DNA of 64,000 nucleotides from an uncultured Actinomycetes bacterium (GTDB taxonomy: Bacteria > Actinomycetota > Acidimicrobiia > IMCC26256 > JACDBD01). The first letter of the stretch is position 1, and the number at the start of each line of letters is the position of its first letter. Shown piece by piece: positions 45,934 through 64,000 of this stretch. The notes beneath the pieces are model-generated. The model ran no database searches, had not been told where the DNA came from, and was given only the letters and a program-made list of their open reading frames with translations. The DNA is taken from positions 351,750-415,749 of the forward strand of contig CAVVDV010000002.1 of assembly GCA_963747195.1 (NCBI GenBank), in the 5' to 3' direction. Made by a program: the position numbers and the translations under genes.

Positions 45934-46449
45934 CTACGCGACCGGGTCGCGGGCCTTCCTCATGAGCTCGCGGACCTCGGCGATCGCCGCGCTGACCTGG
46001 TCGGGCCGGCCGGCGACCTCGTCGGCCAGGTCGGCGACACCGCAGTGACGGAGCATGTCGGGGAGGTGGTGCTCGACGCAGGCGAGCGAGAACTCGACGG
46101 GATCGCCGACGGCCAGCTCGTCGATGCGGACCACGGTGTTCGCGGCTTTCGCCTGCTCGATGTAGTGGTAGTGCGGCTCGTTCTCGAAGCAGTCGAAGCG
46201 CAGGTGCTCGAGACCGTCGGCCGTACCGCAGACGTGGAGCGTGGCGCCGAAGTCGTCGAAGGCCATCTCCGGTTCGACGCCATCGTTGACGGCAGCGGCG
46301 ATGATCTCGTTCGTCAACCTCCGGGACTCCACGACGAGCTGGACGGCCCCTCCGTCGACGGCGATGCAGTGCTCCGTGACCATCGGGATCGGCAGCCGGT
46401 CATAGCGGTTCCCCCGTCGGTACGGGGACTCCTGACGATCGATCGCCAT
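45934..46449 (-). CDS. Hypothetical protein, downstream of the BVMO in the same operon
   Basis: 171 aa, coding-like, motif HLRFDCFENEPHYHY. Confidence 0.7.
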   Translation of the reverse strand: MAIDRQESPYRRGNRYDRLPIPMVTEHCIAVDGGAVQLVVESRRLTNEIIAAAVNDGVEPEMAFDDFGATLHVCGTADGLEHLRFDCFENEPHYHYIEQAKAANTVVRIDELAVGDPVEFSLACVEHHLPDMLRHCGVADLADEVAGRPDQVSAAIAEVRELMRKARDPVA

Positions 46450-46452
46450 CCC

Positions 46453-48124
46453 TCAGCTCCTCTGCGCCGTGGTGCGCGTGGCGCGGGACGAATTCGACAG
46501 CCTGAACGCCTTGTAGTCGTTCTCGCGAAGGTCGGCGATCATCGCGTGGAGCTTCGGCCGGCCGCCCGAGTTCAGGAGGTACCGGCGAGGCTTTCCGGGG
46601 ATGTTGGCTCCGAAGAAGTAGCTCTTCTCCCCACCGAAGAGGGTCTTCGACGCGCCGGCGTCGACCATGTTCGTCCACGCCTCTTCGGCGGCGGGATCCA
46701 CTTCGATCGTGTCGTAGCCGTGATCGCGCACGTACTCGAGTGTGTCCGTGATGAAGTCGACCTGGTCGCCGTTGTACCGGGGGTTGTTGCCGGCCGCGGC
46801 GTGCGGCCCTCCGGGGAAGAAGAAGTTCGGGAAGCCGGTGGTCTGGACGCCGAGGAACGTGCTCGGACCATCGGCCCAGTCGTCCACGAGCGCGCGATCG
46901 TGGCGGCCGCGAATCCCCATGCGCATGAGCGCGCCGGTGCCGAAGTCGAAGCCGGTCGCCCACACCACGATGTCGACCTCCCGCACGACCGTCGGCCGTC
47001 TCGATCCCGCTCTCGGTCATGCGCACGATCGGCGTCTGCTTGAGGTCGACGAGCGAGACGTTCGGCTCGTTGAACACCTCGTAGTAGCCGGTCACGTACG
47101 GAGGCCGGTTCTCGCCGAAGAGCTGGTCCTTCGGGATCAGCTTCTCCGCCGTCTCGGGGTCCTCGACGACGCTCCGGATCTTCTCGGCGATGAACTCGCA
47201 CCACTCTGCGTTCGCGGCCTCGTCGAACAACAGGTCGGTGTAGTTGCCGGTGAGCTTCGTGAAGCCGGGGCTGTTCCACAGCTTCTCGAAGAACGCCCAC
47301 CGCTCCTCTTTCGAGTCGTCGAAGGTGGCGCGGTCGTGCGCGGCGTGGAGGAACCCGCTCGGCGATGTGTTCAGCGTCTCGCACATCGCTTCGAATTCAG
47401 CCCTGAGCTTCGCCTGCTCGTCCGGCGTGATCGGAGCGTTGTTGAGCGGCGTGCACCAGTTGGCGGTGCGTTGGTACACCGTCAGGGAGGCAACCTCGCC
47501 GGCGATGGCCGGGATCAGCTGGACGCCACTCGATCCGGTACCGATGACTGCGACGCGCTTGTCCGCGAAATCGACCGGCGTCGCCGGCCACAACCCCGTG
47601 TGGTACGACTCACCCCGAAAGTCGTCGCGCCCCGGCACGTCCGGGAAGTACGGCACCGAGAGGACGCCGGTCGCGGCGATGAAGAATTGCGCCCGGAACG
47701 CGGTGCCGTCGCCGACCACGACGGTCCACTTCCCCGACGACTCGTCGTACGCGGCCGAGGTGACCTTGGCGCCGAATCGCATGTGGCGCCGAAGGTCGAA
47801 CCGGTCGACCACGTGGTTGAGGTAGCGCTCGGTCTCCGGTTGCTGCGCGAAGTGCTCTTGCCACTCCCACTCTTCGAACAGCTCTTTCGAGAACAGGTAG
47901 CCGTAGGTGTAGCTCTCCGAGTCGAACCGTGCCTGGGGGTAGCGGTTCCAGTACCAGGTACCGCCCACGCCACCACCCGCCTCGAGCAGCAGCGCGGAGA
48001 AGCCGGCCTCACGTGCGCGGTACAGCTGGTAGATGCCCGTGATGCCGGCGCCGACGACCAGGACGTCGACCTCGGCCGCGTTGCGACGCGCGCGCTCGTC
48101 GGGTGCGGGTCCGGAGGGGTTCAT
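46453..48124 (-). CDS. Baeyer-Villiger monooxygenase (frameshift ~46990)
   Basis: VGAGITG, GGTWYWNRYP, FRGESYHTGLWP fingerprint, GTGSSG, WATGFD. Confidence 0.92.
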
Positions 48125-48155
48125 TGTACCGACCGGTTAGTATACGGTCGGTCCC
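48125..48155. promoter_or_regulatory. Operator motif A plus an adjacent second site
   Basis: TGTACCGACCGGTTAG followed by TATACGGTCGGTCCC. Confidence 0.65.
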
Positions 48156-48189
48156 GACAGCGCACTCCGGAGCGGGAAAGGGGCGCTGC

Positions 48190-49554
48190 GTGGCGATCGC
48201 GGATCGGAAGAGGTCGGCGCTTCCGGTGCCTCACGCGATGGAGTACCCGGACCGGGTCCCCAAGGAGCGCTACGTCGACCCGGACTTCTACCAGATGGAA
48301 GTCGAGCTGCTGTGGCCGCGCGTCTGGCAGATGGCGTGCCGGCTCGAGGAGATCCCCGCGCCGCACGACTTCGTCGAGTACGAGTTCCTCGATCAGTCGA
48401 TCATCGTGCTGCGCACCGACGACATGGGGGTGCGCGCGTTCCAGAACGCCTGCCGCCACCGTGGCGTCAAGGTCGTCCAGGGAAGCGGGACGTGCGAGAA
48501 CGGGTTCACCTGCCCGTTCCATGGCTGGTGCTACGGCCTCGACGGCATGAACGCAGCCGTCCCGCGGCGAAAGACGTTCTCCGAGCACAACCTCCAGCCG
48601 GACGACATCAACCTCGTCCCGGTGCGGTCCGAGGTGTGGGGCGGGTGCGCGTGGATCAACCTCGACGACGACGCGCCGCCGTTGCGGCCGTGCATCGAGC
48701 CCGCCGCGAGCACGCTCGACGCGTGGAAGGTGGAGTCGCTGCGGACCGAGCGGTGGTTCGCGTGCCGTCTTCCCGTGAACTGGAAGCTCGCCGAAGAGGC
48801 GTTCGTCGAGATGTACCACGTTCCGCAAACACATCCCGAGCTCATCATCCCCACGAGGTACGGGTTGCGCGACGGTGCGTCGTTCGATCCTCGTGCCTTC
48901 ATCGACGCGGACATCCAGTACCTGCGCACGATGAGCGACGGCATGGCCGGGATGGTCCACGCGAACGACGTGCGCATCGCCGAGGGTCTGCGGGACATCG
49001 AGCTGCCCGACGACCCGGCGCTGGCGATGGCGACCTGGAACCGCACGCTCAACGACGCGGTCACGAGCTGGCACCGGGACCGGGGCTCCGACGTCCCCGA
49101 CCTCAACGAGCTCGACGCGCAAGGGCTCAACCAGGAGTTCTACCAGTGCTTCCCGCACTACTTCGTGTTGCCGATGTACAGCAGCGCCTCCTCCTACCGC
49201 TTCCGCCCGTTGGGGCCGGAGGAGACGCTGATGGAGATCTGGTCGCTCACGCGGTTCCCGGAGGGCCAGGAGCCGGTGAAGCCGACGCCGCCCGAGGTGT
49301 GGGAGTGCGACGATCCGCGGTGGCCGCCGATCCCCACGCAGGACTTCTCGAACCTGCCCCGGCAGCAGAAGGGCCTGCACGCGAAGGGCTTCGAGTACAT
49401 GCGCCTGTCCAGCGGACTCGAGGGACACATCTCGAACTTCGAACGGACGATCGACGGCTTCCTCGCCGGCCTTCCCTACGAGCAGCTGCTCCCGGCGGTG
49501 CAGTCGCTCAACGTGTACCCGTTCGACAAGCCCATTCTCGACATCGGCTTCTGA
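48190..49554 (+). CDS. Rieske non-heme iron oxygenase alpha subunit
   Basis: NACRHRG, CPFHGW, NWKLAEEAFVEMYHVPQTH. Confidence 0.92.
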   Translation: MAIADRKRSALPVPHAMEYPDRVPKERYVDPDFYQMEVELLWPRVWQMACRLEEIPAPHDFVEYEFLDQSIIVLRTDDMGVRAFQNACRHRGVKVVQGSGTCENGFTCPFHGWCYGLDGMNAAVPRRKTFSEHNLQPDDINLVPVRSEVWGGCAWINLDDDAPPLRPCIEPAASTLDAWKVESLRTERWFACRLPVNWKLAEEAFVEMYHVPQTHPELIIPTRYGLRDGASFDPRAFIDADIQYLRTMSDGMAGMVHANDVRIAEGLRDIELPDDPALAMATWNRTLNDAVTSWHRDRGSDVPDLNELDAQGLNQEFYQCFPHYFVLPMYSSASSYRFRPLGPEETLMEIWSLTRFPEGQEPVKPTPPEVWECDDPRWPPIPTQDFSNLPRQQKGLHAKGFEYMRLSSGLEGHISNFERTIDGFLAGLPYEQLLPAVQSLNVYPFDKPILDIGF

Positions 49555-52398: not shown

Positions 52399-52466
52399 CG
52401 GTGGCCAAATCAGAATCCTGTTTCACTCGAACGAGGGTACCAGCGCGCCGAACACGAGAACGGACT

Positions 52467-53255
52467 TCACAACGACGCGTCATCCCGTTCTCCGCTTCGC
52501 GCTCCAACGCTTCGACCGCGGCCCAGTGCGCGTCTCCCGTCCACAACCGCGCGAACGCGTCGGTTGCATCGGCCTCGAGCTCGGGGTGGAAAGACGGGAC
52601 TGCCGCGCCGACGACGGCCTTCACGGCGCGCGTCGTGCCCGGAGCCGATGCCGCCAGCCGGCGTGCGAGCGCCCGCCATTCGTCGTCGAACGTCGGCGCG
52701 CGGGACGACGACGTCGACGAGGCCGAATCGCTGCGCGGTCGGCGCGTCGTAGACATCGCCGGTCGCGATGGCCAGGAGCGCGCGACTGCGACCCACCAAC
52801 TGGGCGAGCCGCTCCGCGCCGCCCCACGCCGGCATGATCCCGAGCGCCACCTGGTTGAAGCCGATCTTGACGTCGTCGGCCGCGATGCGGATGTCCGCCG
52901 CGACGGCGACCTCCGCTCCGCCGCCGAGCGCGTGCCCGTTGAGCGCCGCGATCACCGGGACGGGGAAGGCGGCGACGCGGTCGAGCAGCCTCCGGACCCG
53001 GCTCGCCATGGCGACGGCCGCCTCGTGCGTGCGGATCGAGCCCAGCTCCTTGATGTCGCCGCCCGAGACGAACGCGCGATCGCCGCTACCCCGCAACACC
53101 AGCACTGCCGCGCCCGAGTCGGCCACCTCGTCGACCGCGGCGCCGAGCGCGTCGATGGTCGCGAAGCCGATGGCGTTGCGGGCCTCGGGCCGGTCGATGG
53201 TCACCACCGCAACGCCGGCATCGATCTCGAGTCGCACGTCAGAGGCCTCGAACAC
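52467..53255 (-). CDS. Enoyl-CoA hydratase/isomerase family (frameshifts; 3' end approximate)
   Basis: IDRPEARNAI, FVSGGD, NGHALGGGAE, PAWGG. Confidence 0.85.
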   Translation of the reverse strand: MFEASDVRLEIDAGVAVVTIDRPEARNAIGFATIDALGAAVDEVADSGAAVLVLRGSGDRAFVSGGDIKELGSIRTHEAAVAMASRVRRLLDRVAAFPVPVIAALNGHALGGGAEVAVAADIRIAADDVKIGFNQVALGIMPAWGGAERLAQLVGRSRALLAIATGDVYDAPTAQRFGLVDVVVPRADVRRRMAGARTPAGGIGSGHDARREGRRRRGSPVFPPRARGRCNRRVRAVVDGRRALGRGRSVGARSGERDDASL

Positions 53256-53296
53256 AAATGGAGAATAGCGCTCTCGCGATCGCGTCACGCTCCCCA

Positions 53297-53375
53297 TCTG
53301 CATATCCAATTTCGCTACGCTCCACGTCGGCGTCGCTTTCCGACTTTCTGCATATCGCAATTTCCGCTACGCTCC
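53297..53375 (+). repeat. Imperfect direct repeat upstream of the mutase
   Basis: tctgcatatccaatttcgctacgctcc (53297) and tctgcatatcgcaatttccgctacgctcc (53347). Confidence 0.75.
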
Positions 53376-53379
53376 GCTC

Positions 53380-54964
53380 GTGGACGACGGCGTGCACAGC
53401 GAGGCCGGGATCCCTCTCGCCCCGAGCTACGGGCCGGCCGACCTCCCGCCGCCCGAGTCGATCCCGCCGCCGGGTGTGTTCCCCTTCACGCGCGGCAACT
53501 TCCCCGACGGGTACCGGGGCCGTCTGTGGACGATCCGCCAGTACTCGGGCTTCGGCACGCCCGAGGAGTCGAACGAGCGCTACCGCTACCTCCTCGCCCA
53601 GGGGGGCACCGGCCTCTCGGTCGCGCTCGACCTCCCGACCCAGTGCGGGTACGACTCCGACCACCCCGACGTCGAGGAGGAGGTCGGCCGGGTCGGCGTC
53701 GCGCTCGACACGCTCGCCGACGCCGAGATCCTGTTCGACCGCATCCCGCTCGACGCGATCAGCACGAGCTTCACGATCAACGGCACGGCGGCGATCCTGC
53801 TGGCGTTCTACGTGGCGGTCGGGGAGAAGCAGGGCGTCGACCGGTCGAAGCTGCGCGGCACGATCCAGAACGACATCCTCAAGGAGTACGTGAGCCGCGG
53901 CACGTGGATCTGGCCGCCCCGCCCGTCGCTGCGGCTGATCGCGGACACGATCGAGTTCTGCGCGCAGGAAGTGCCGCGCTTCAACGCGATCTCCGTGGCG
54001 GGCGCGCACTTCCGTGACGCCGGCGCCAACGCGGCACAGGAGATGGCGTTCACCCTCGCGGACGGGGTGACGTACTGCGACGAGGTGATGGCGCGCGGCC
54101 GGATGACCATCGACGAGTTCGCGCCGCAGGTGTCGTTCTTCTTCTACACCCACGGCGACTTCTTCGAGGAGGTCGCCAAGTACCGCGCCGGGCGGCGACG
54201 CTGGGCCCGCATCGTGCGGGAGCGGTACGGCGCCAAGGACGATCGGTCGTGCATGTTCCGCGTCGGCTGCGTCGCCGGCGGCGCGTCGCTCTACGCGCCG
54301 CAGGCGCACAACAACGTCGTTCGTGTCGCCTACGAGGCCTTGGCCTCCGTGCTCGGGGGAGTCCAGTCGATGTTCACGGCCGCGTGGGACGAGCCGTTCG
54401 CGCTGCCGAGCGAGGACTCGGCGACGCTGGCGCTGCGGACGCAACAGGTGCTGGCGCACGAGACCGGCGTGACACGCGTCGCCGATCCGCTCGGCGGCTC
54501 GTACTACGTCGAGGCGCTGACCGACGAGATGGAGGCCCGGGTCGTCGAGATCATGGACGACCTCGAACGCCGCGGCGGAATGGTGAAGGCGGTCGAAGAG
54601 GGCTACCTGCAGCGGCTGATCTCGGAGGAGGCCTTCCGCGTCCAGACGGCGATCGCGTCGGGAGACCGGACGGTCGTCGGCGTGAACCGGTTCGAGACCG
54701 AAGAGGAACCGCCCGAGGTCGAGGGTTACGAGATGGACGAGAAGGGCCGCATCCGCCAGCTCGAACGGCTCGCCGACGTGAAGCGCTCACGATCGGCGGC
54801 CGACGTGCGCGACACGCTCGCCGCACTCGACGCCGCCGCCGGCGGGAGCGAGAACCTCATGCCCCTCCTCGTGGACTGCGCCAAGGCGTACTGCACGGTG
54901 GGGGAGATGGTCGCCGTGCTCAAGGACCGAGTGGGGCGAGTTCCGGCAGCCGGCGGTCTTCTGA
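53380..54964 (+). CDS. B12-dependent acyl-CoA mutase large subunit (methylmalonyl-CoA mutase family; frameshift ~54930)
   Basis: [48 protein letters not shown]. Confidence 0.92.
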
Positions 54965-55368
54965 TGCCGGTCCGGGTGCTCGTCGCCAAGCCCGGGCTCG
55001 ACGGGCACGATCGGGGAGCGAAGCTCGTGGCGCGGACCCTGCGCGACGCCGGGTTCGAGGTCATCTATACGGGCATCCGTCAGCGGCCCGAGGCGATCGC
55101 GGCGGTCGCGATGCAGGAAGACGTGCGCATCGTCGGCCTCAGCGTCCTCAGCGGCGCGCATGTCGCGCTCACCAGGAAGACGGCGGAGGCGTTGCGCAGC
55201 GCGGGCGCGGACGACGTGCTGCTCGTCGTGGGCGGCACGATCCCGAAGCGGGACGTCCCCCGCCTCGAGGCTGCCGGCGCGGCCGCCGTCTATCCGACCG
55301 GCACGCCGCTCGAAGAGCTGGTCGACAGCATGCGGGCGCTGTCGGGTACCGCTCAGGCGCCCTTGTAG
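54964..55368 (+). CDS. Cobalamin-binding small subunit of the acyl-CoA mutase
   Basis: [10 protein letters not shown] (DxHxxG), [18 protein letters not shown] coupling. Confidence 0.9.
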
Positions 55369-56584: not shown

Positions 56585-56917
56585 GGGATCGGTTCGATCA
56601 GGAGGTCGAGGTAGGCGGCGCCGCTGTCGGGGACGTGCGGCTGGCGCCAGACCTCGACGGGGAACGAGACCATGACGAGCGAGTACAGCAACTGGAGCAG
56701 CCGCTGCGCGTCGTCGGGCATGTCGTCGAGCTCGAACTTGTCGCAGTACTGCGATCGCTTCCTCGGCGCGCGGGAAGAAGGCGTCGTAGAAGGCTTGCAT
56801 CTCCTCCATCGAGCTCGTCATCCGTTGCGCGAACCGCTCCCGCTCCGTCGGCAGGCACCACGTCGCGGCGAAGGGCTCCAGCTCGGAGAACTCGCCGGGC
56901 AACCGGGCTTCGCTCAT
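56581..56917 (-). CDS. Small hypothetical protein coupled to the Rieske gene (frameshift ~56755)
   Basis: LPGEFSELEPFA..WCL..ERER...MQAFYD...VSFPVEVWRQP; ATGA/GTGA overlaps. Confidence 0.72.
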
Positions 56918-58194
56918 CGGGCTCCCACCTCCACCCGTTCGCGCGTGTAGTCGTCGACCCAGTCGGCGGCCACCTTGTGCAGGTGCCGGCAGAGGATCTC
57001 CTGGTCGTTCAGCGGGAAGGCGGTCACGACGCGTGACTCGAGCATGGTCTGCGTCGCCTCGAGCGTGTTGCCGTCCTGGAGCGCGTACTCCTTGAACGTG
57101 ACCGCGGCCATCTCCTGCGCGAGGCGCTCACGCGCGTTCTTCGGCGGGACGAAGTAGAGGTTCCCTTCGAACACGTGCGCGTTGTGCGACGTCGGCCAGT
57201 AGTGGTACGTGAGGTACCAGCCTCGCTCCCAGATCAGGATCACGAAGTTCGGCCAGACCTGGAACGAGTCGAGGCCCCAGTGCTTCCGGTCGGCCGGGTT
57301 GACGCCCGCGGGCAGCGGGTCCGGGCCGAGGTCGGGCGCGTCCCACGGACCGAACAGGCCGCTGCGCGTCACCGTCTCCATGGGCTTCAGCATCTCGGGG
57401 GGCATCCGCCACCCTTCCCCGACGGTTGTCGTCACCAGCCGGTGCGGTCCGTCGAGTTGGTAGTGCAGCGCCTCGAAGCCGGCGGCCTGCACTTCGGGGA
57501 GCGCCGCGACGGGTGACTGGCGCGCGTGCAGCACGGGTGCGTGGTAGAACTCCTGGAAGGCGTCGATGAACAGCTTCCAGTTCGCGTGGACGACTGCGCG
57601 GTACGAGAAGCGCTCCGTCTGCTGGTCGAACGGGTAGCCCTCGATCGCGGTCGTCATCGGGCCGAGGAACTCTCTCAGCGACTGGCGCGGCTCCTTCTCC
57701 AGGTTCACGAAGATGAAGCCCGACCACACGTCGCAGTGCACCGGGACGAGCCCGTAGTCGGACTTGTCGAGGTCGAAGAACTCGCCCTCCTGCTGCACGA
57801 ACGCGCAGGCACCGTCGAGCTCGTACTTCCAGCCGTGGTACTTGCAGACGAACTGGCGGCAGCTCCCGCTCGTCTCCTCGCCCGGGAAGTCGGTCCAGAC
57901 GAGCTTGTTGCCGCGGTGACGGCAGATGTTGTGGAAGGCGCGCACCTCTCCGTCCATCCCGCGCACGACGACGATCGAGGTGTTGGCGACCGCCAGCTCC
58001 TTGGTGAAGTAGCTCCCCTTGCGGGACAGCTGCTCGACGCGGCCGACGTTCAGCCAGGAGCGCTTGAAGATGGCCTCGCGCTCGAGCTCGTGGATCTCGG
58101 GAGAGATCGAGTCCTCGTACGACACGGGCCCGGTTCCGAGCTCCGGGTAGTGCGCCGTCCAGCTGCCTTCCGGCGGCTTCTCGATGCGAGCCAT
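56914..58194 (-). CDS. Rieske non-heme iron oxygenase alpha subunit
   Basis: NICRHRG, CKYHGW, NWKLFIDAFQEFYHAPVLH, QD. Confidence 0.92.
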   Translation of the reverse strand: MARIEKPPEGSWTAHYPELGTGPVSYEDSISPEIHELEREAIFKRSWLNVGRVEQLSRKGSYFTKELAVANTSIVVVRGMDGEVRAFHNICRHRGNKLVWTDFPGEETSGSCRQFVCKYHGWKYELDGACAFVQQEGEFFDLDKSDYGLVPVHCDVWSGFIFVNLEKEPRQSLREFLGPMTTAIEGYPFDQQTERFSYRAVVHANWKLFIDAFQEFYHAPVLHARQSPVAALPEVQAAGFEALHYQLDGPHRLVTTTVGEGWRMPPEMLKPMETVTRSGLFGPWDAPDLGPDPLPAGVNPADRKHWGLDSFQVWPNFVILIWERGWYLTYHYWPTSHNAHVFEGNLYFVPPKNARERLAQEMAAVTFKEYALQDGNTLEATQTMLESRVVTAFPLNDQEILCRHLHKVAADWVDDYTRERVEVGAR

Positions 58195-59693: not shown

Positions 59694-60652
59694 ATGCGGA
59701 TCGGGCTGATGATCGGCCCCGAGAAGGGGCGGTACCGCGAGAAGGTGGCGCGGCTCGTCGCCGATGCCGAGGCCGCCGAGCAGGCCGGCTTCACGCTCGA
59801 TCTGGGTGCCCCAGCTCCCGGGCGACTTCGACGCGCTGACCGCGATCGCGCTCATGGGCCGGGCGACCGACCGCGTCGAGCTCGGGACGGCGGTCCTGCC
59901 GATCCAGACCCGCCACCCGGTGGCCATGGCGCAGCAGGCGCTGTCGAACCAGGCGGTGTGCGAAGGGCGGTTCACGCTCGGGCTCGGGCCCTCCCACCAC
60001 TGGATCGTCGAGGACATGCTCGGCCTGCCCTACGACCGGCCCGCCCGCCAGGTGCGGGACTACCTCGAGGTGCTGAACGCCGCGTTCGCCGGCCCCGGCC
60101 CCGGTCGACGTCGAGAACGACAGCTACCGCGTGCACAACCCGCTCGACGTCACCGACATCGCCCGACGCCGGTCCTCCTGGCGGCTCTCGCGCCGGTGAT
60201 GCTCCGCATCGCCGGCGAGCACGCGTCGGGGACCATCCTCTGGATGGCGGACGAGCGGGCGATCGGCGAGCACGTCGTGCCGCGGATCACGAAGGCCGCG
60301 GCCGAGGCGGGGCGGCCGAGCCCGCGGATCGTGGCCGGCGTCCCGGTGGCGCTGTGCGCCGACGACGAGGTCGACGCTGCGCGCGGCGTGGGCCAACCAG
60401 GTGCTCGGGCACGCCGAGTACTCGCCGAACTACCAGCGGCTGCTCGAGCACGGCGACGCCACCGACGTCGGCGACGTGCTCGCCGCCGGGCGACGAGACC
60501 GCGGTCGTCGACCGGCTCCGCAGCTTCCGCGACGCGGGCGTCACCGACCTGGCCGTCCGCGTCCTCCCGCTGGGCAGGGACCGCGCCGCGCGCATCGAGT
60601 CACGCGAGCCGCGTCGATGCGCTTCCTCGCGTCGCTCTGCCCCGAGCTCTGA
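59694..60652 (+). CDS. LLM-class F420-dependent oxidoreductase (frameshifts)
   Basis: WVPQ, ELGTAV, RHP, GRFTLGLGPSH, AALAPVML. Confidence 0.85.
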
Positions 60653-60659
60653 ACGTGCC

Positions 60660-61823
60660 GTGACGGACGCGTCGTCGGGCCCGCTCGCCGGCATCAGGAT
60701 CCTCGAGGTCGGGCACATCCTGGCGGGACCCGTTCGCCGGCATGCTGCTGGCCGACCTCGGCGCCGACGTCATCAAGATCGAGCCGATCGACGGCGACCT
60801 GTCCCGCCAGGTGGGATCGGACTACGTCGGCGAGCACAACGTGTACTTCGCGAGCCTGAACCGCAACAAGCGCAGCGTGCACATCGATCTCACGACCGAG
60901 GAGGGCCAGGCCGAGCTCGGCGCGCTCGCGGAGACGGCCGACGCGCTGCTCGTGAACCTGCGTCCGTCGACGATCCGGAAGCTCGGCCTCGACTACGAGT
61001 CGCTGCGCCGATTCAACCCGAAGATCGTGTGCGTCGCGCTCACCGGGTACGGCCTCGAGGGCCCGGCGGCCGAGTGGCCCGCCTTCGACTACGTCATCCA
61101 GGCCGGGGTCGGCGTCGCCGGCCTGACCGGTGAGCCCGACGGGCCCCCGACGCTCCCCGGCTACTCCGCCGTCGACAACTCGTCGGCGATCATGGCCGCG
61201 CTGGCGCTCGTCGCGAAGGTGCACGAAGGCAAGGGCGGGCAGGTCGACGTCTCGCTCTTCGACGTCATGCTCTCGCAGCTCAACTACAAGGCGGCGGCGT
61301 ACCTGAACGGCGGGGACGTCCCCGGCGCGCCAGACGCTCGGCGCGCACAACTTCTACGTGCCCGCGCAGCTGTTCGAGACGGCGTCCGGCTACCTCGCGC
61401 TGTTCGTGACCCACGACGAGTTCTGGCGGCGGCTGTGCGTGGAGATCGATCGCGCCGAGTGGGCGGACGATCCGCGCTTCGCCACCATGCACGCGCGGTT
61501 CGAGAACCGAGCCGAGCTGCTCGACGCGCTCGGCTGCGCGGCTGAAGGAAGCTCCGGCAGCAGAGTGGGCGGACCGCCTCCGCCCGCTCGGGATCGCCGT
61601 CGGTGCCGTCGCCGACCTGGGTGACGCGCTCGACGGCGAGCTCGTACGGTCGCGCGGGATGGTCGTCGTCGGTCGAGACCGACAGACGGACCGCTGCGCT
61701 TGGTCGGCGAGCCCGATCCGGTTCGACGGCGGCAGCGCGGAGTACCGCCCGCCCCCGCGCTTGCACGAGCACACCGGAGAGCTCGTCGAGCGGCCCGACG
61801 ACGAGCCGGGTCACGCGTCGTAG
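60660..61823 (+). CDS. CaiB/BaiF family III CoA-transferase (frameshifts)
   Basis: PLAGIRILE, LADLGADVIKIE, NRNKRS, TGYG, DYVIQA, PPRLHEHT. Confidence 0.87.
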
Positions 61824-62835: not shown

Positions 62836-62932
62836 CGGCGGTTCCCTCGGCGGCCGGCGCGGTCTATGATAACCCCGCTCTCGAATTTTGTTAACTCTCG
62901 TTTTCGCCGAGCGCGAGGGGGGAGAGCCAGGG

Positions 62933-64000
62933 GTGCGGAGCGAGGTCACGTGGCCGACGGTCCCTGCCATGGTCCGGGACGCCGCGGGTCGCTTCGGCGA
63001 CGCGGAGGCCGTGGTGGACGGCACCCGGCGCGTCGACTTCGCCACGCTCTCGGCGACTGGTTACCGACGCCGCGCGCGCGCTCCTCGCGTCGGGTGTCCG
63101 GCGTGGCGACCGGGTCGCGGTGTGGGCGCCGAACTCGCTCGAGTGGATCGTCGCCGCGCTCGGCGTGACGACGGCCGGCGGGGTGCTCGTCCCCGTCAAC
63201 ACCCGGTTCCGCGGCCCCGAAGCGGCGTTCGTCCTCGCCGCGCAGCGGCGCCCGCGCCTTGTTCACGGTGCGCGGGTTCCTCGACACCGACTACCCGGCG
63301 CTGCTCGCCGCCGCCGGCGTCCCGCTCCCGGCGCTCGAGCGCACCATCCTCCTGTCGGGTGACGCGGATGCGCGCGTCGGTGGCGTGGGACGAGTTCCTC
63401 GCAGCCGGTCGTTCCGTGCGTGACGCGGACGTCGACGAGCGACTCGAGTCCATCGGCCCCGACGATCCGAGCGACGTCGTCTTCACGTCGGGGACGACGG
63501 GGGAGCCGAAGGGCGTGGTGATGACGCACGGCCAGACGCTGCGCGCCTACCTCGACTGGTGCGACTGGGCCGACCTGCGCCCGGGTGACCGCTACCTGAT
63601 CGCGAACCCGTTCTTCCACATCTTCGGCTACAAGGCCGGTTGCCTCGCCTCGCTCATGCGCGGCGCCACCATCGTCCCGCTCGCCGTGTTCGACCCCGGC
63701 GTCGTGCTCGAGCTCGTCGAGCGCGAACGGATCTCGGTGCTGCCGGGACCGCCGACCATCTATCAGTCGCTGCTCGAGCACGGCGATCGCGATCGGCGCG
63801 ACATCTCGAGCCTGCGCCTCGCGGTGACCGGCGCGGCCGACATCCCCGTCGAGCTCATCCGACGCGTTCGGGAGGAGCTCCCGTTCGAGCGCATCCTCAC
63901 CGGGTACGGGCTCACCGAAGCCGGCACGGTCACCGGCAGCAAGCCCGACGACGACTTCGAGCACATTGCGGCCACGGTCGGTGTCCCGTGGCCCGGCTTC
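62933..64000 (+). CDS. FadD3-like acyl-CoA ligase (frameshifts; 3' truncated by window)
   Basis: [43 protein letters not shown]. Confidence 0.87.

Follow-up and report, generated by a model that had tools for sequence, protein, structure and literature searches.

The window analysed here is a stretch of 64,000 nucleotides from an uncultured Actinomycetes bacterium of the class Acidimicrobiia, and its element of interest is an open reading frame (ORF) at 53380-55368 that encodes a B12-dependent acyl-CoA mutase. As translated from the window, this ORF has 662 amino acids. It holds two subunit genes in reality, and a divergently transcribed crotonase gene lies directly upstream. The features needed for the argument are listed below. 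Residue numbers in brackets are those of the methylmalonyl-CoA mutase (MCM) of P. shermanii, taken from an alignment with structure 1REQ (the file is offset by one, which was checked).

53380..54964, plus strand: large (TIM-barrel, substrate-binding) subunit of an adenosylcobalamin (AdoCbl)-dependent acyl-CoA mutase, from TIGR00641 and the +1-frame stop; about 527 amino acids in relatives
54964..55368, plus strand: cobalamin-binding small subunit, 134 amino acids, with DGHDRG (DxHxxG), from TIGR00640 and translation
53542..53898, plus strand: carboxylate clamp Y55 (Tyr89), Q163 (Gln197), R173 (Arg207), from alignment; 164/164 loci
Within 53998..54393, plus strand: pocket residues A207 (S241), A209 (Y243), H210 (H244), Y256 (G289), G296 (H328), from alignment
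Within 53998..54393, plus strand: pocket residues V298 (Q330), F332 (H364), A334 (N366), E338 (E370), from alignment
52470..53258, minus strand: crotonase-family protein, putative alkylmalonyl-CoA decarboxylase, divergent from the mutase, frameshifted, ends approximate

Two subunit genes joined by one extra base

An earlier note on this DNA had treated 53380-55368 as a single gene. This was not borne out, as one extra base near 54930 merges the two subunit genes. When the junction is read in the +1 frame, the large subunit regains its conserved ending, and its TGA at 54962-54964 overlaps the ATG of the small subunit (TGATG). The stop of the large subunit lies 11-13 codons on in all 155 loci with a C-terminal match, out of 160 related loci. 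It was also observed that the contigs of near-identical strains have one base fewer at 54930/54931 in four of four runs. Since these contigs come from relatives and not from the same genome, there is a slight chance that the extra base is a private mutation of this genome, but indels of this kind abound in the assembly. The stand-alone large-subunit relatives P0005 and P0006 are 97% and 95% identical, and the best 120 homologs, from a search whose range included fused lengths, have 497-554 amino acids at 85-97% identity. An ortholog of the small subunit is present in 79 of the 80 actinobacterial loci. That the catalytic and B12 domains are naturally fused is thus ruled out by the +1-frame ending, the stops in relatives and the contigs that lack the extra base. 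One other fused record, P0314 (658 amino acids), is a single member among the 14 of a proteobacterial cluster.

Fusions and splits of ORFs in this assembly are to be distrusted, because many single-base insertions and deletions break genes. Examples in the window lie at 52448-52694, 55471 and 60675-61793, where the crotonase, the CoA-transferase and other genes are broken. The three paralogous mutase genes of the same genome are likewise frameshifted. The intergenic region at 53275-53375, between the divergent crotonase and mutase genes, carries an imperfect duplication of about 50 bp, in which TCTGCATATC and TTTCGCTACGCTCC each occur twice; the contigs of two of the four runs show a 36-letter stretch here instead of 82 bases. 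This duplication is either an assembly artefact or a duplicated operator. The mutase gene is covered by metatranscriptome contigs in one run, which is no demonstration of transcription.

A conserved carboxylate clamp, a reshaped pocket and a separate clade

The large domain scores 651 bits with TIGR00641 (cut-off 303.8) and the B12 domain 151 with TIGR00640 (cut-off 57) in NCBIfam. For P0005, the relative at 97% identity, the AlphaFold model (pLDDT 93.4) was matched by Foldseek to HcmA and MCM structures with TM-scores of 0.92-0.94, the best being HcmA (4R3U) at 0.94. By profile and predicted fold, the pair is assigned to the two-part AdoCbl-dependent acyl-CoA mutases.

Translation and alignment to solved mutases confirmed the four motifs RQYSGF, AGAH, RVGCVAGG and SMFTA that the earlier note quotes for this locus; they lie at residues 53-58, 207-210, 294-301 and 330-334, with the Gln197/Arg207 segment at 163-173. 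The signature was followed through 164 loci, comprising 80 from genomes (nearly all labelled actinobacterial), 80 metagenomic and 4 from proteobacterial plasmids. Tyr89, Gln197 and Arg207, the clamp for the substrate carboxylate that had been described as retained, are indeed kept in all 164, and so are His244 and Glu370 in the large subunit. The motif changes from SGYH to AGAH, from RTHxQTSG to RVGCVAGG and from SLHTN to SMFTA were confirmed, and with them Tyr243 to Ala, His328 to Gly, Gln330 to Val and Asn366 to Ala. Positions 89, 197, 207, 244, 328, 330, 364 and 370 do not vary among the loci; position 243 is Ala in 152 and Ser in 12, and position 366 is Ala in 91 and Cys in 73. The pocket substitutions are constant in 120/120 top homologs. 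Chance or a sequencing or assembly error as their source is ruled out by this constancy, together with the clade pattern in 164/164 loci.

Two further changes, S241A and G289Y, are present in every one of the 164 loci and had been missed in the earlier note, which had not counted His364 to Phe either. Tyr at 289 is found in 8 of the 141 scorable family representatives at 50% identity, and 6 of these 8 have the A-Y pattern of the clade. These additions bear on the earlier proposal that small residues enlarge the pocket. In sums of residue volumes against the P. shermanii pocket, the four changes counted at first remove about 227 Å3 of side-chain volume, and the set of eight positions only about 58 Å3. 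The enlargement was therefore overstated; it is safe to say that the pocket is reshaped and de-polarised and, as far as the alignment tells, modestly larger. The register of the strands suggests that Tyr289 partly fills the site of Tyr243. The substitutions gather around the spot at which MCM holds the methyl carbon of its substrate; Tyr243 of MCM touches this carbon, and ethylmalonyl-CoA mutase (ECM) widens the same area via H328G and N366P.

The earlier expectation that the protein would not cluster with canonical MCM held in two FastTree trees of 107 and 73 sequences, where it falls in a clade of its own (local support 0.999 and 1.0), distinct from fused and split MCM, isobutyryl-CoA mutase (ICM), hydroxyisobutyryl-CoA mutase (HCM) and ECM. 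These trees hold near-full-length matches only, their deeper branches are poorly resolved, IaaGH, MatB and pivalyl-CoA mutase are absent from them, and their ECM and ICM reference sequences were assigned by motifs. The clade spans Actinobacteria and Proteobacteria, and the nearest named relatives are Acidimicrobiia. Within this class the mutase is accessory, being present in 14 of 301 genomes. The genome of the window also encodes large subunits of three other types:

Contig C2, 16800-18800: ECM-type mutase gene, frameshifted
Contig C2, 762876-764422: ICM-type mutase gene, frameshifted, with a MeaB gene nearby
Contig C5, 566320-568365: MCM-type mutase gene, frameshifted, with a MeaB gene nearby

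Because a paralog of each type is present in the same genome, the clade mutase is not needed as MCM, ICM or ECM, and on these assignments it is the fourth, non-redundant mutase of its genome. Databases label the clade members as methylmalonyl-CoA mutase. No study characterising the clade turned up in the literature search, which did not extend to subscription papers such as a structural survey of mutases without assigned function; the clade is widespread and apparently unstudied. In one paper, MSMEG_4881 of M. smegmatis is called a methylmalonyl-CoA mutase gene (PMC10066036). It is likely an ortholog of the clade mutase, because an oxidoreductase of the MSMEG_4879 family sits two genes away from the mutase.

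The crotonase partner and a candidate decarboxylating route

The tightest partner of the mutase is the crotonase. It occurs in exactly the same 14 of the 301 class genomes, and the five genomes without an adjacent copy all carry one elsewhere (61-63% identity). In metagenomic loci with enough flank, it lies at most 400 bp upstream of the mutase in 37 of 51. In this protein the first catalytic Glu is retained (GGGAE), and the second is replaced by Gln (GFNQ). This Glu/Gln pair was seen in 36 of those 37 metagenomic cases and in 64 of 68 crotonase matches. Hydratases usually have two catalytic Glu, and the methylmalonyl-CoA decarboxylase ScpB of E. coli likewise lacks the second. An automatic UniRef name, 'Ethylmalonyl-CoA decarboxylase', is attached to 3 of 13 proteins in the ortholog cluster of Paraburkholderia. 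A homolog search and a PDB profile search with the crotonase named no decarboxylase, and the closest solved relatives were hydratases; one ortholog falls in generic hydratase clusters (Atlas). The partner crotonase has an invariant C-terminal W-x4-H of its own.

In Proteobacteria, the operon is compact and consists of IclR, crotonase, mutase large subunit, mutase small subunit, family III CoA-transferase and a MeaB-like GTPase. Carriers of the tripartite ATP-independent periplasmic (TRAP) or tripartite tricarboxylate (TTT) type stand behind it in three of the four plasmid loci and upstream in the fourth. The CoA-transferase accompanies the mutase in 58 of 80 loci from Actinobacteria and lies downstream of it in 49 of 56 metagenomic ones. 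Its best NCBIfam models are succinate-glutarate and succinyl-CoA:mesaconate transferases, both under the cut-off. MeaB is found in 30 of 44 metagenomic loci. In Actinobacteria it neighbours the mutase in no more than 7 of 80 loci, and the copies of the window's genome are elsewhere. An epimerase is essentially absent, with one weak match in 160 loci. Acyl-CoA dehydrogenase is rare outside Actinobacteria (4/80 metagenomic loci). The core module looks self-contained, because the other neighbours outside Actinobacteria are heterogeneous.

It is proposed, with a probability of roughly 0.6 and from sequence and analogy, that the mutase converts a substituted succinyl-CoA into a substituted malonyl-CoA, which the crotonase then decarboxylates. 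The family III CoA-transferase would activate a dicarboxylate, supplied by TRAP/TTT import in Proteobacteria and by the oxygenase/beta-oxidation cluster in Actinobacteria. The MeaB-type GTPase would load AdoCbl onto the mutase, and AdoCbl would drive a radical 1,2-shift of the thioester carbonyl, from a C2-substituted succinyl-CoA to the matching malonyl-CoA. The carboxylate would be gripped as in MCM, with the substituent in the space vacated by Y243A, H328G and N366A and walled by V330, F364 and Y289. The Glu/Gln crotonase would release CO2 to give a monocarboxylic acyl-CoA, which would draw the shift onward with no need for an epimerase. In its gene logic the module would follow E. coli scpA-argK-scpB-scpC, for a larger substrate.

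H328G is common to the clade mutase and ECM. Further, a mutase of 487 amino acids in a cluster with non-ribosomal peptide synthetase (NRPS) and crotonyl-CoA carboxylase/reductase (CCR) genes (L105:4977-6440) has Leu at 89 and Gly at 243. This protein is probably MatB-like, and its Gly243 fits the idea that loss of Tyr243 makes room for an alkyl group. A catabolic precedent for a substituted succinyl-to-malonyl route is described in PMC8360864.

The favoured sub-case, offered tentatively and itself doubtful, is a gem-disubstituted succinate, e.g., 2,2-dimethylsuccinate, which would pass through isopropylmalonyl-CoA to isovaleryl-CoA. It is favoured because beta-oxidation cannot process such a compound, both CoA regioisomers being blocked for dehydrogenation; chemical logic and a weak terpenoid hint are its basis. 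The module would then remove quaternary carbons, turning 2,2-disubstituted succinates from terpenoid or ionone rings into isovaleryl-type acyl-CoAs via a tertiary radical, and the tyrosine of the neighbouring strand (G289Y) would stand in for Tyr243.

Several observations weigh against the succinyl-to-malonyl proposal. G289Y and H364F cancel most of the volume gain in the pocket. Moreover, Tyr243, Gln330 and Asn366 of MCM also contact the adenosyl group, so what the pocket changes affect may be the control of radicals and not the size of the substrate. The crotonase is only 20-25% identical to ScpB, no nearer than to ordinary hydratases, and a Glu/Gln pair is also found in ring-opening hydrolases. 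The 14 genomes in which crotonase and mutase co-occur are related and not independent samples, and no statistic is attached to the coincidence. Under a strict cut-off, only 8 of the 14 genomes with the mutase also yielded the CoA-transferase, and so did one genome that lacks the mutase. Lastly, no consistent upstream pathway emerged from the heterogeneous non-actinobacterial flanks, in which 39 and 70 selected ORFs were scanned.

Some of these points would suit a different carboxylated acyl-CoA, i.e., a hydroxylated, cyclic, glutarate-type or tricarballylate-type compound rather than a simple alkyl or aryl succinate, with the crotonase acting as a hydrolase, lyase or dehydratase. A pocket that is reshaped and not simply enlarged, a crotonase whose best solved relatives are hydratases and which carries its own W-x4-H, and a transferase best matched by the succinate-glutarate model are in line with it. 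However, the replacement of polar H, Q, H and N by G, V, F and A suits a hydrocarbon substituent, the second Glu usual in hydratases is missing and the automatic decarboxylase name is borne by 3/13 ortholog-cluster members. This alternative is thus considered unlikely, though by no means negligible.

The clade could also be an independently evolved equivalent of ECM, taking methylsuccinate to butyryl-CoA and CO2. The shared H328G, a small or non-polar residue at 366 and the UniRef label of the partner speak for this. Against it stand an identity of about 40% to ECM-type proteins, which form a different clade and keep Y243 and Q330, and the ECM-type gene already present in the same genome; methylsuccinyl-CoA can, besides, be oxidised without B12. 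Such an equivalence is judged distinctly improbable. Orthology with the phenylsuccinyl-/benzylmalonyl-CoA mutase IaaGH is rated lower still, as very unlikely. IaaGH is two-subunit by name, comes with a CoA-transferase and acts on an aryl-succinate (PMC8360864); yet the iaa route decarboxylates via the acyl-CoA dehydrogenase IaaF, matches to which type occur in just the few metagenomic loci counted above, and neither a hydantoinase nor a molybdenum hydroxylase was seen among the selected neighbouring ORFs scanned.

There is the slimmest chance that the protein is an ordinary MCM with tolerated substitutions or a dead relic, as its database name, the kept Y89/Q197/R207/H244/E370 and the near-inactivity of the Y243A mutant of MCM might suggest, since it scores 694 against a cut-off of 876 with the MCM equivalog model NF006944, lies outside the MCM clades and shares its genome with a canonical MCM-type gene. 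Its patchy distribution, combined with 85-97% identity in the top 120 and a signature constant across phyla, argues for selection for an active, different function.

Wider neighbourhood, known systems and implications

The remaining annotated neighbours in the window are as follows.

60675..61793, plus strand: family III (CaiB) CoA-transferase, PF02515, about 80% in tblastn to the L016 ortholog, frameshifted
59764..60663, plus strand: F420-dependent luciferase-like monooxygenase (LLM)-type oxidoreductase (TIGR03564, MSMEG_4879 family), in 59/80 loci, family from the L039 ortholog
56914..58194, minus strand: Rieske oxygenase alpha subunit, in 19/80 loci, from Pfam on the L008 ortholog
62888..64000, plus strand: FadD3-family acyl-CoA ligase that runs off the window, 77% to the L004 ortholog, which passes NF005801

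The same catabolic island holds a DUF7700 protein, a flavin monooxygenase and a second Rieske oxygenase at 45934-46449 and 46400-49554. The actinobacterial cluster comprises the F420-type LLM, acyl-CoA ligases, paired acyl-CoA dehydrogenases, a ferredoxin reductase, Rieske oxygenases, amidohydrolases and a CYP150A6-like P450. The last presumably hints at terpenoid-type substrates; a search of papers gave no support for this. The oxygenase/CoA catabolic cluster assumed earlier is therefore present around the locus, but its oxygenases are mostly actinobacterial, and the core shared across phyla is the crotonase with the CoA-transferase.

Comparison with known systems sets the clade apart in different ways. 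MCM (1REQ, human MMUT 2XIJ, E. coli ScpA) is alike in fold (TM about 0.92-0.94), in Tyr89, Gln197, Arg207, His244 and Glu370 and in the DxHxxG domain; the clade differs by an identity of about 45%, by its two genes and by Y243A, G289Y, H328G, Q330V, H364F and N366A. The E. coli scp operon also joins mutase, GTPase, crotonase and CoA-transferase, whereas the clade module has a family III transferase and a crotonase distant from ScpB (20-25%). ECM (Ecm/MeaA, represented by L113 from Streptomyces and L089 from the window's own genome, both assigned by motif) shares the clamp and H328G. It keeps Y243 and Q330 and has Q364 and P366, and its motifs RYGVQVNSLG and QLPxWNE are lacking in the clade. 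HcmAB (4R3U) and IcmAB have the same split into large and small subunits, HcmA being the best structural match, at 48-49% identity. Their residue 89 is Ile or Phe and their residue 207 is Gln, in contrast to Tyr89 and Arg207 of the clade, and they keep Y243, H328, Q330 and N366. Pivalyl-CoA mutase has a non-carboxylate pocket without Tyr89 and Arg207, and the retained Tyr/Arg argues against a mutase of that kind.

A new carbon-skeleton rearrangement had also been suggested. The clade is indeed separate and has its own pocket; nevertheless, mutases for bulky dicarboxylyl-CoAs have already been described. IaaGH is the phenylsuccinyl/benzylmalonyl-CoA mutase of Aromatoleum aromaticum in indoleacetate degradation, and an alkylmalonyl route of alkane degradation is described as well (PMC8360864). 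MatBQ/ActD is presented in another paper as a hexylmalonyl/2-pentylsuccinyl-CoA mutase, with MatB of 481 amino acids and always with CCR/NRPS (PMC5719088). The locus would work much as they do. IaaGH resembles the proposed module in its catabolic setting, with a CoA-transferase, a B12 mutase and decarboxylation of a bulky malonyl-CoA, but uses the dehydrogenase IaaF in place of a crotonase, and none of the iaa context was seen in the neighbours scanned. MatBQ/ActD is likewise split and is proposed to act on a bulky alkyl dicarboxylyl-CoA; it is biosynthetic and shorter, as against the catabolic clade of about 527 amino acids. No CCR or NRPS was found among the recurrent annotated neighbours of the clade mutase, and L105, the context-matched stand-in for MatB, falls outside the clade in the tree.

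Other divergent mutases were met along the way. A rhizobial plasmid operon (L102:3098-9979 and L103:3072-9970) combines an aminotransferase, a split mutase, MeaB, a crotonase and a CoA ligase; its mutase, which has Val89 and Gln207, is sister to HCM and probably represents another specificity. A split mutase on a Sphingobium plasmid (L099:2357-6094) has a pocket that diverges throughout, with TQVTGF and no equivalents of Arg207 and His244; a P450 and a TonB receptor are nearby. Many 50%-identity representatives among P0125-P0274 (e.g., P0129, P0131, P0132, P0134 and P0141) keep Tyr/Arg in non-canonical pockets, which suggests, from their sequences, further mutase specificities.

Few specificities of acyl-CoA mutases are known so far. 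According to one report, an engineered mutase lost its activity through rational mutation of the first shell (PMC11599936). A highly conserved natural mutase with six first-shell changes is a new scaffold for bulky malonyl- and succinyl-CoAs, which serve as polyketide extender units and as intermediates of synthetic pathways. Which substrate the mutase uses can be tested directly, thanks to the compact operon of Proteobacteria and to a crotonase that is so closely inherited with it. The database name, methylmalonyl-CoA mutase, probably inflates the propionate metabolism inferred for these organisms, and the module suggests that soil Actinobacteria, and Proteobacteria too, possess a further catabolic route that depends on B12.

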